64,000 nucleotides of DNA from a virus. Position numbers and translations under genes: made by a program. The notes under the pieces were generated by a model. It was not told the DNA's origin. It ran no database searches and saw nothing but the letters and a program-made list of their open reading frames with translations. Of the stretch, positions 62,747 through 63,108 are shown in pieces; the first letter of the stretch is position 1, and the number at the start of each line of letters is the position of its first letter. The stretch lies in IMG/VR virus record IMGVR_UViG_3300027743_000025, positions 22,174 through 86,173 of that record. One strand, written 5' to 3'.

Positions 62747-62774
62747 AAAAAGAGCCGGGCCTAAGGCCCGGCTC
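62747..62774 (-). terminator. terminator after peptide gene 1 (possibly bidirectional)
   Basis: GAGCCGGGCC-TAA-GGCCCGGCTC with a T-tract on the minus strand. Confidence 0.8.
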
Positions 62775-62793
62775 CGCCGCGACGGCCGATCGA

Positions 62794-62877
62794 CTAGAAC
62801 ACGAAGACACCAAGCAGGACGCCGGCTACCAGGCCGATGATAAGGCCGATAAAGACGCCACCCCAGTCGTAGGTCAT
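62794..62877 (-). CDS. 27-aa hydrophobic peptide (not in ORF track)
   Basis: GGGAGGG RBS; MTYDWGGVFIGLIIGLVAGVLLGVFVF. Confidence 0.7.
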   Translation of the reverse strand: MTYDWGGVFIGLIIGLVAGVLLGVFVF

Positions 62878-62934
62878 GATGTGTTCCCTCCCTCCCACGT
62901 AGTAGGAGCACATCCAGTGTACGCCGCTGGACGT

Positions 62935-62960
62935 AGAAAGAGCCGGGACAAGCCCGGCTC
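62935..62960 (-). terminator. terminator after peptide gene 2
   Basis: GAGCCGGG-ACAAG-CCCGGCTC followed by TCTTTC on the minus strand; paralogous to the 62752 hairpin. Confidence 0.65.
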
Positions 62961-62988
62961 CGAGGATCAACAGCGCACCTATCGGGAC

Positions 62989-63075
62989 CTAGAACACAAA
63001 TACCCCGAGCAGGACACCGGCAACAAGGCCGATGATCGCGCCAATCAGGAGGTTGCCCCAGTTGACACCACTCAC
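62989..63075 (-). CDS. 28-aa hydrophobic peptide (not in ORF track)
   Basis: GTG start; MSGVNWGNLLIGAIIGLVAGVLLGVFVF. Confidence 0.65.
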   Translation of the reverse strand: MSGVNWGNLLIGAIIGLVAGVLLGVFVF

Positions 63076-63108
63076 GTCAACGTCAACCTCAGGACCGTCG
63101 TAACGCAT

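Follow-up and report, generated by a model that had tools for sequence, protein, structure and literature searches.

Background

Holins have at least one transmembrane domain (TMD) together with a hydrophilic, charged C-terminal domain; they sit beside the endolysin gene in a lysis cassette and permeabilise the membrane to trigger lysis. Holin/antiholin pairs differ mainly by an N-terminal extension. The pinholin S21 68 has two TMDs and a charged C-terminus, and is located in a lysis cassette. Helices with multiple GxxxG motifs are typical of homo-oligomeric channels and also of pore-forming toxins; glycine-zipper membrane toxins include the N-terminus of VacA and the zipper toxins of T6SS and T7SS. 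Small accessory or inhibitory single-transmembrane peptides of the size considered here are well known, and KdpF, AcrZ, CydX and PsaM (~25-40 aa, one hydrophobic helix) act on a larger membrane complex against which they pack. A phage moron is an autonomous transcription unit between conserved genes. Micro-proteins of <40 aa usually escape annotation, and few have been proven real by their evolution.

In the part of the source available to us, the glycine zipper is described as a helix-packing device in TMD2 of S21 68 of phage 21 (PMC9025707). Putative glycine zippers are reported for ionophoric CDI toxins, again in the accessible sections of that paper (PMC11630599). For type I toxins, the available portion of Fozo et al. 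2010 (PMC2887945) gives a length of <70 aa, one transmembrane region and tandem repeats in one intergenic region, charged, polar or bulky residues clustered at the C-terminus, a spacing of >400 nt upstream and >250 nt downstream, and an antisense or overlapping sRNA as antitoxin.

Here we analyze two tandem micro-genes, P1 and P2, found in the DNA of a phage. Both are very probably real genes with products located in the membrane. The window (the whole stretch of DNA analysed, 64,000 nucleotides) comprises bases 22174-86173 of an IMG/VR virus record of 86,173 bp, which is rated 100% complete.

Results

Phage and genomic setting

The G+C content of the phage is 61.4%. Three genes on the minus strand serve as landmarks:

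52092-53615, minus strand: large terminase
48207-49715, minus strand: portal
18822-19691, minus strand: endolysin, with a PF08924 domain (3.2e-27) and a C-terminal hydrophobic helix

The same strand also encodes the major head protein, the major tail protein and the tape-measure protein. The best portal identity is ~42% at most, against portals of Gordonia, Microbacterium and Arthrobacter phages. Because of these genes and this portal similarity, the phage is, judged by its gene content, an uncultured actinophage-like siphovirus. A domain search of its genome gave no tyrosine- or serine-recombinase domain; from this suggestive lack of an integrase, the phage is probably lytic. Near-identical DNA is present in freshwater-sediment and soil metagenomes.

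The endolysin is the final gene of its own operon, with a convergent gene coming next, and has no adjacent holin; it lies ~43 kb from P1 and P2. An endolysin of the Amidase_2 type was not found in the phage. The genome contains eight other single-transmembrane micro-ORFs with basic C-ends. Translation confirmed an array of single-transmembrane micro-ORFs on the minus strand upstream of the window, whose peptides have basic C-ends and no homology to P1 or P2.

Two glycine-zipper peptides

An earlier note on this DNA had placed two tandem glycine-zipper micro-genes on the minus strand. The sequence and the ORF list bear this out, both ORFs lying where the note put them. In the direction of transcription the locus contains:

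62989-63108, minus strand: P2 micro-gene, 39 aa plus stop, an acidic N-tail followed by a 22-residue glycine-zipper helix that ends the protein
62935-62961, minus strand: T1 hairpin between P2 and P1, GAGCCGGGC-loop-CCCGGCTC with a weak TTTCT tail
62916-62921, minus strand: TACACT box (TANNNT, -10-like) ~40 nt upstream of the P1 ATG, candidate P1 promoter
62884-62896, minus strand: P1 Shine-Dalgarno sequence GGGAGGGAGGGAA, 6 nt before the P1 ATG and conserved in the related loci L083 and L085
62794-62877, minus strand: P1 micro-gene, 27 aa plus stop, product MTYDWGGVFIGLIIGLVAGVLLGVFVF
62746-62775, minus strand: T2 intrinsic terminator, an 11-bp G+C-rich stem with a 3-nt loop and a TTTTT tail

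P1 consists of MTYDW followed by a 22-residue helix, with glycines at positions 6, 7, 11, 15, 19 and 23; apart from glycine, this helix contains I, L, V, F and A only. P2 starts with a 16-residue acidic tail and a Trp, after which comes a like helix with Asn19; its glycines are at 23, 27, 31 and 35, plus 5, 14 and 18. The glycine at every fourth residue that the earlier note had pointed out is thus present in both peptides (7, 11, 15, 19 and 23 in P1, 23 to 35 in P2), amounting to four to five consecutive GxxxG repeats per helix. The last 22 residues have a GRAVY of 2.61 (P1) and 2.41 (P2), and the net charge is -1 for P1 and -3 for P2. In both peptides there is no basic residue beside the helix and no residue after it: the sequence ends in LLGVFVF, which contains no polar or charged residue and has Phe as its sole bulky one. 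The C-terminal half (GLVAGVLLGVFVF) is almost invariant. The invariant GLVAG(V/I)LLGVFVF includes a GVxxGV arrangement, which we take to resemble the glycophorin-A type motif for helix dimerisation.

Relatives of the locus

The search for homologues that the earlier note had suggested did yield relatives. A terminase-led search gave a related phage of 86.5 kb (L083), of which TerL is 94% identical. A degenerate pattern of the peptide tail re-found this phage in viral_contigs (L084), and in metagenome contigs the same pattern led to L090 (peptides identical to those of L083), L085 (a third variant, on a contig of 1,072 bp) and L086 (99.67% identical to the window). This amounts to three DNA variants (window=L086; L083=L084=L090; L085), which are of one lineage and form a narrow comparative sample. 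Both micro-genes and their hairpins are present in unchanged order in all of them (3/3). The P2 variants show an in-frame 3-nt indel, and Ser is encoded by AGT in two variants and by TCT in the third. P0003, a protein record only, is a fourth P2 variant and differs by five substitutions. Across 6/6 aligned peptides, P0003 included, every zipper glycine is invariant.

Selection on the peptides

Purifying selection had been claimed in the earlier note on the basis of the two copies, and the relatives support it. Using the Nei-Gojobori method, dN/dS is ~0.05 in the four orthologue pairs of window and relative, and 0 and 0.12 for two pairs between relatives, with dS up to ~1. For P2 alone, dN/dS is 0.05-0.12. 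For P1 and P2 taken together (window against L084) we count 22 synonymous differences (S=50.2) and 5 non-synonymous ones (N=141.8; Fisher p=6.9e-11), the differences per codon position being 4/1/22. The signal is specific to this frame: the other five contain stops or lack a comparable signal, the best of them being an antisense frame that shares the wobble positions (p=0.004). Between window and L083 the identity is 24/27 for P1 and 36/40 for P2 (89-90%), against 46-78% for four neighbouring proteins. Judged from these substitution patterns, P1 and P2 are kept as translated protein-coding genes under strong purifying selection.

A comparison of the two copies with each other gives a similar picture. 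The last 15 residues are identical, as the earlier note had observed, and the corresponding codons differ at 7 sites, every one of them synonymous; counting all 23 shared codons gives Sd=11 and Nd=6. The units can be aligned over ORF and terminator at 78% mean column identity. Given that the synonymous sites of the paralogues are near saturation (pS 0.56-0.94), the duplication is an old one in which both copies were retained, which argues for non-redundant roles of P1 and P2.

Start codons and expression signals

The earlier note had P2 start at GTG 63075 (28 aa). This start has to be replaced: the most likely one, from the comparison with relatives, is ATG 63108 (39 aa), because the relatives keep the ATG, a strong Shine-Dalgarno sequence and the acidic N-tail. 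In L083 and L085 the ATG is found 5-6 nt after the strong Shine-Dalgarno sequence GGAGGGAGGGGAA, the P2 orthologues of L083, L085 and L090 (40 aa) have a strong Shine-Dalgarno sequence of their own, and synonymous changes, the Ser codon exchange between AGT and TCT among them, have left the N-tail YDGPEVDVDVSGVNW conserved. The note had also described both genes as missed by the ORF track. This does not extend to other gene callers, since the protein libraries contain P2 as 39 aa (P0007) and P1 in an over-long form of 39 aa (P0002). We rejected the latter form: its upstream ATG and additional residues are not conserved in L083, whereas the 27-aa form is.

The GAGCCGGG/CCCGGCTC hairpin pair occurs at 62940-62960 and 62752-62774, which are the 2 matches in the 64-kb window (0 expected, 100 shuffles). 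The hairpin stems are identical across all variants, and the loops vary. Each micro-gene has a hairpin behind it, as stated in the earlier note. T2 is a canonical terminator according to the terminator scan (-30.4 kcal/mol), whereas T1 has a 9-bp stem and the TTTCT tail and was not flagged by the scan. Because of this poorer U-tract and the missing call T1 may leak, and it is probably a leaky terminator that separates P2 and P1. In the window, 6 nt separate the T2 tail and the stop of the next gene (gene A), and the distance from T2 to the next gene is 6-35 nt overall.

P1 is placed between two hairpins and has its own strong ribosome-binding site. The TACACT box is conserved in the window, L083 and L085, and the sigma-70 scan called no promoter there; that the box is P1's own promoter is something we infer only. 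P2 appears to be expressed as the last cistron of the upstream unit, which is an HNH gene in the window and a membrane-protein gene in the relatives. Two further candidates for control were rejected. Sequestration of the Shine-Dalgarno sequence in the P1 leader does not fit the conserved CUCCUAC/GUGGGAG hairpin (read by eye), which leaves GGAGGGAA free, and a genome-wide GGTTGACA box on the antisense strand of P2 is not conserved in L085. Of 24 runs, 4 were examined; the sole RNA run among them (X24) gave a single contig of 151 nt at 62300-62446, outside the micro-genes, and the lack of cover elsewhere carries no weight for or against expression.

Cassette structure and rearrangement

The surroundings of the micro-genes in the window are as follows:

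63593-63946, plus strand: gene B, a 117-aa protein with 75% aa identity to its L083 homologue
63109-63594, minus strand: HNH endonuclease gene upstream of P2 (Pfam HNH_3 2.3e-7; PHROG 826 5.7e-43)
62740-63592, no strand assigned: inverted block of HNH, P2, T1, P1 and T2 (blastn orientation against L083, L085 and L090)
62374-62739, plus strand: gene A, a 121-aa protein with an N-terminal transmembrane helix and 46% aa identity to its L083 homologue

As to REARRANGEMENT, the cassette shares its strand with both flanking genes in L083, L085 and L090. In these relatives an N-terminally anchored membrane protein of 125 aa comes first, P2 follows ~40 nt after gene A, and a 117-aa protein is found after T2; there is no HNH gene between the flanking genes. 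In the window and L086, the whole block between the flanking genes is inverted and an HNH gene has been added just upstream of P2. Here the HNH gene ends in TAG with the ATG of P2 coming directly after it, and the 3' end of HNH reads through the Shine-Dalgarno region of P2. The L083 genome has only a weak HNH match of 43% identity, at another place. The simplest history would be an insertion of HNH between gene A and P2, after which the block was inverted. The window-type order is also confirmed by L086 as an independent contig, and it is not an assembly artefact, because an independent run (X2) carries it in a single contig of 3,125 bp with 2 differences. The cassette has remained intact after inversion and HNH insertion.

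No family was found for gene A (Pfam, PHROGs, PADLOC, NCBIfam), and its use as a query for related loci gave no relatives. PADLOC gave no match for 10 local proteins; with this result and the lack of a recombinase domain in the genome, we rejected a role in prophage defence.

Searches for homologues and families

Searches of 50,697 phage records by megablast, blastn and tblastn gave no match for P1 or P2. In 82 loci, including 80 beside HNH relatives, phmmer against the six-frame ORFs returned self matches only. When 1.84 billion representatives were searched exhaustively with a profile, 4 matches at E<=0.001 were obtained, of which two are peptides of the lineage itself. Two long repetitive proteins (P0004 and P0005) were rejected as homologues: they match the acidic-tail region alone, in many stretches, which we judged to be compositional. 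In the ESM Atlas the best score was 0.77, under the level that shuffled proteins reach one-third of the time.

Neither Pfam, PHROGs, NCBIfam, PADLOC nor Rfam contained anything significant for P1 or P2. Pfam gave no match at E<=0.1, and at E<=10 YtxH (PF12732) only (E 1.4-9.7, 7-10 bits against a cut-off of 37.5); for DUF883_C (PF19029), a six-frame search of the whole genome gave nothing at E<=10. The best NCBIfam model was PsaM (sub-threshold, E 0.26), and Rfam at E<=1 gave only a weak SorX (18.7 bits against a cut-off of 46.6).

Pattern searches produced several candidates that did not hold. The exact 13-aa back-translated pattern had 0 matches in viral_contigs, being too strict as relatives vary between V and I. 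With the tail pattern, three of the six metagenome loci (L087, L088 and L089) are internal to larger ORFs and end in Trp rather than a stop, and were put down to chance; two loci in genome contigs (a 48-aa frame in a Dorea MAG and an archaeal ORF of 444 aa) are unrelated. A looser scan of viral_contigs for four GxxxG repeats plus stop gave 8 loci, and the relative accounts for one of them. Of the remaining 7, six are either simple-repeat frames or a frame of 18 residues that lacks a start codon. The last, L094 (44 aa), combines an acidic head with a glycine-zipper tail and shows no detectable homology.

The literature gave no description of this peptide family, in papers that are themselves not searchable by sequence. 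The earlier note had called the peptides undescribed, and this agrees with our finding of no family or homologue outside the phage lineage. As far as the searched libraries reach, P1 and P2 are a previously undescribed orphan family, confined to one phage lineage.

Discussion

Since none of the libraries holds a homologue of known function, any mechanism, including the pore-forming or receptor-blocking pair proposed in the earlier note, has to be drawn from composition and motif. Our preference, a tentative one at less than even confidence, is that P1 and P2 are partner-binding peptides that act by helix packing. They would insert in the host cytoplasmic membrane, where the glycine face would serve as a surface for helix-helix packing. 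The peptides might form homo- or hetero-oligomers and might bind to the transmembrane helices of a membrane protein, from either host or phage. The activity of that partner would then be altered in infection, be it for takeover, for exclusion of other phages or for control of envelope or lysis. We favour packing and partner binding over a water-filled pore because the P1 helix is apolar apart from glycine and has no flanking basic residues. As an example of a very small inhibitor, a 19-aa type I toxin is said to inhibit ATP synthase, according to the accessible part of a 2025 preprint.

Nearly as likely, and in itself still doubtful, is a role as membrane leak or pore former: P1 and/or P2 would assemble through the zipper as a small channel and depolarise the host membrane in the manner of a pinholin or viroporin, perhaps with a part in the timing of lysis, while the acidic-tailed P2 might be an antiholin-like regulator for the anchored endolysin. 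The four to five consecutive GxxxG repeats agree with such a role, and the available parts of two reports describe a glycine zipper that mediates pinhole formation in S21 68 (PMC9025707) and putative zippers in ionophoric CDI toxins (PMC11630599). The endolysin is C-terminally anchored in the membrane, comes last in its operon and has no holin beside it, and P1 and P2 differ mainly by an N-terminal extension, which by analogy may recall a holin/antiholin pair. However, the peptides lack a hydrophilic or charged C-terminal domain, P1 has no polar residues that could face a lumen, and the genes are ~43 kb away from the endolysin, with the eight micro-ORFs with basic C-ends being equally good holin candidates. 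Moreover, the P1/P2 operon of the relatives does not share its strand with the structural and late genes, which run the opposite way. A more specific version, in which P1 is a minimal 27-aa effector of the pinholin type and P2 the antiholin or timer, together releasing or activating the unusual anchored Rv2525c-type endolysin, we consider improbable; if true, the pair would be the smallest known two-component membrane-depolarising lysis trigger.

It is less probable again that the locus is a module resembling type I toxin-antitoxin systems, with toxic peptides whose mRNAs are curbed by antisense or overlapping small RNAs. A length of <70 aa, a single transmembrane helix and a tandem duplication with similarity beyond the ORF are features by which, in the accessible part of their paper, Fozo et al. 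2010 (PMC2887945) found type I toxins, and the duplication would match ibs/sib, ldr/rdl and zorO/zorP. But the polar or charged C-terminal cluster is absent, and the genes are packed too tightly for the spacing used there, as P2 abuts the HNH stop (or follows gene A after ~40 nt in the relatives) and T2 is 6-35 nt from the next gene. A simple scan gave no promoter-like site on the antisense strand, the SorX score in Rfam at E<=1 is far from its cut-off, and a lytic-looking phage would have little use for addiction. The lowest probability goes to hitch-hiking, either as selfish cargo of an HNH homing-endonuclease element or as a pure terminator cassette with incidental ORFs, which we regard as very unlikely. 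In the window the cassette is indeed physically joined to the HNH gene and has moved with it, and the identical stems with varying loops in all copies would also speak for this reading. Yet in 2/3 DNA variants the cassette occurs with no HNH gene, and the strong constraint at the amino-acid level is confined to one frame, so that an RNA or terminator function is insufficient; by the frame-specific dN/dS, this reading is largely refuted already.

For the partner-binding reading as well as for a pore, the outcome would matter: if P1 and P2 inhibit a host membrane complex or depolarise cells, they would represent a new, very small membrane effector of phage origin; otherwise they are one more orphan family of phage membrane proteins. 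In either case the pair is a clean model, cheap to synthesise, for studying an extreme GxxxG zipper in an actinobacterial membrane, because selection is frame-specific and stronger than on the neighbours, both duplicates have been retained and the cassette has survived rearrangement.

Comparison with known systems

P1 and P2 share with the tandem type I toxins Ibs, Ldr and ZorO/ZorP, as these are presented in the available portion of PMC2887945, a tiny hydrophobic single helix, a tandem arrangement with similarity in the flanks, and expression signals for each copy. Size, transmembrane helix and tandem repetition agree with the features given in that part of the source, whereas the C-terminal cluster and the gene spacing do not. 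Unlike those toxins, the peptides are found in a lytic-looking phage of a high-G+C host and have no sequence similarity to such families.

With the pinholin S21 68 of phage 21 (the accessible part of PMC9025707) they have in common that both are small phage membrane proteins with glycine-zipper helix packing. P1 and P2 differ from it in having one TMD, no C-terminal tail and a position far from the endolysin. Compared with holins in general the TMD is present, but the charged C-terminal domain and the location in a lysis cassette are both absent.

Glycine-zipper membrane toxins such as the CDI ionophore CdiA-CT (PMC11630599) similarly have repeated GxxxG on one helix face, which is linked to de-energisation of the membrane. 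These toxins are, however, domains of large delivered multi-helix proteins with immunity partners, whereas P1 and P2 are free peptides of 27-39 aa that, from their genes, would be made inside the infected cell; no homology between the two was detected.

The Pfam glycine-zipper families (YtxH PF12732, DUF883_C PF19029, Gly-zipper_Omp, Gly-zipper_YMGG and Rick_17kDa_Anti) have a comparable GxxxG-rich anchor helix, and the N-terminal helix of YtxH is the closest Pfam match. P1 and P2 are not members of these families, because their scores are below the gathering thresholds.

Relative to a phage moron, the cassette likewise has its own terminator (canonical for T2, with a weak U-tract for T1). The conserved TACACT box upstream of P1 is a candidate promoter that the sigma-70 scan did not call, and P2 seems to depend on the transcript of the upstream gene. 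Unlike a moron, the cassette is not variably present across the relatives: it is found in 3/3 DNA variants between the same two genes.

The small single-transmembrane subunits KdpF, AcrZ, CydX and PsaM, finally, are alike in size and in their hydrophobic helix; P1 and P2 differ from these in being phage-borne, in an unusually long zipper and in showing no significant similarity. Overall, the P1/P2 family belongs to the broad known class of small phage proteins with a single transmembrane helix.

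Orientation of the P1/P2 block

The block at 62740-63592, which lies between two conserved flanking genes and carries the glycine-zipper membrane micro-genes P1 and P2, is flipped over its entire length relative to three related contigs. It also contains an extra HNH endonuclease gene, absent at this place in the relatives, whose stop codon directly abuts the start of P2. The gene order of the block is borne out by two independent assemblies. Another HNH-like ORF is found elsewhere in the window:

2009-2440, plus strand: second HNH-like ORF, weak zf-His_Me_endon match (E 0.007)

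A 56-bp stretch (87.5% identity) is common to this ORF and the P2-adjacent HNH gene.

At the other end of the HNH gene (63589-63596) its ATG on the minus strand and the plus-strand ATG of the flanking 117-aa gene overlap back to back as CATG. TANNNT-like boxes, read by eye, are situated 6-7 nt 5' of the ATG of the 117-aa gene, in the window and in the related contig L083 alike; this position suggests that its mRNA is leaderless.

In L083 the operon that carries the P1/P2 cassette runs on into another protein gene (1-513, minus strand); the product carries an HExxH motif, and its N-terminus resembles a signal peptide. Matches of this protein to matrixin (E 0.006) and astacin (E 0.012) are both under the Pfam cut-offs.

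Further membrane micro-ORFs and the endolysin

Further small ORFs are present both in the window and in the part of the virus record (G000:C1) just ahead of the window start:

G000:C1:19146-21477, minus strand: eight more single-TM micro-ORFs, 24-46 aa
Window 62088-62377, plus strand: two small putative ORFs (76 aa and 60 aa) that overlap in different frames

Most of the eight have basic C-terminal ends, and none shows homology to P1 or P2. Membrane micro-proteins seem to be unusually numerous in this phage. The two overlapping putative ORFs each have a hydrophobic helix, and both seem to be conserved in L083.

The structural operon ends with the endolysin gene:

18822-19691, minus strand: endolysin, Rv2525c-like glycoside-hydrolase domain (PF08924, 3.2e-27)

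The extreme C-terminus of the endolysin is a hydrophobic helix; no holin gene is adjacent.

Matches to other proteins

In a profile search two long repetitive proteins (P0004 and P0005) match the acidic N-terminal tail of P2, with 15 stretches in one and 10 in the other, and we judge these matches to be compositional. The protein-library entries behind this observation and the next are P0004, P0005 and P0006. The cluster membership table of P0002, the over-long gene-caller form of P1, includes a bat TCF7L2 protein, apparently a database artefact.

A loose GxxxG pattern scan yielded, among other loci, a peptide in an unrelated viral contig (62% G+C):

L094 5135-5269, minus strand: 44-aa peptide

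Here an acidic or polar head is followed by a C-terminal Gly-zipper helix that forms the protein end. The architecture is analogous to that of P2, though homology is not detectable.
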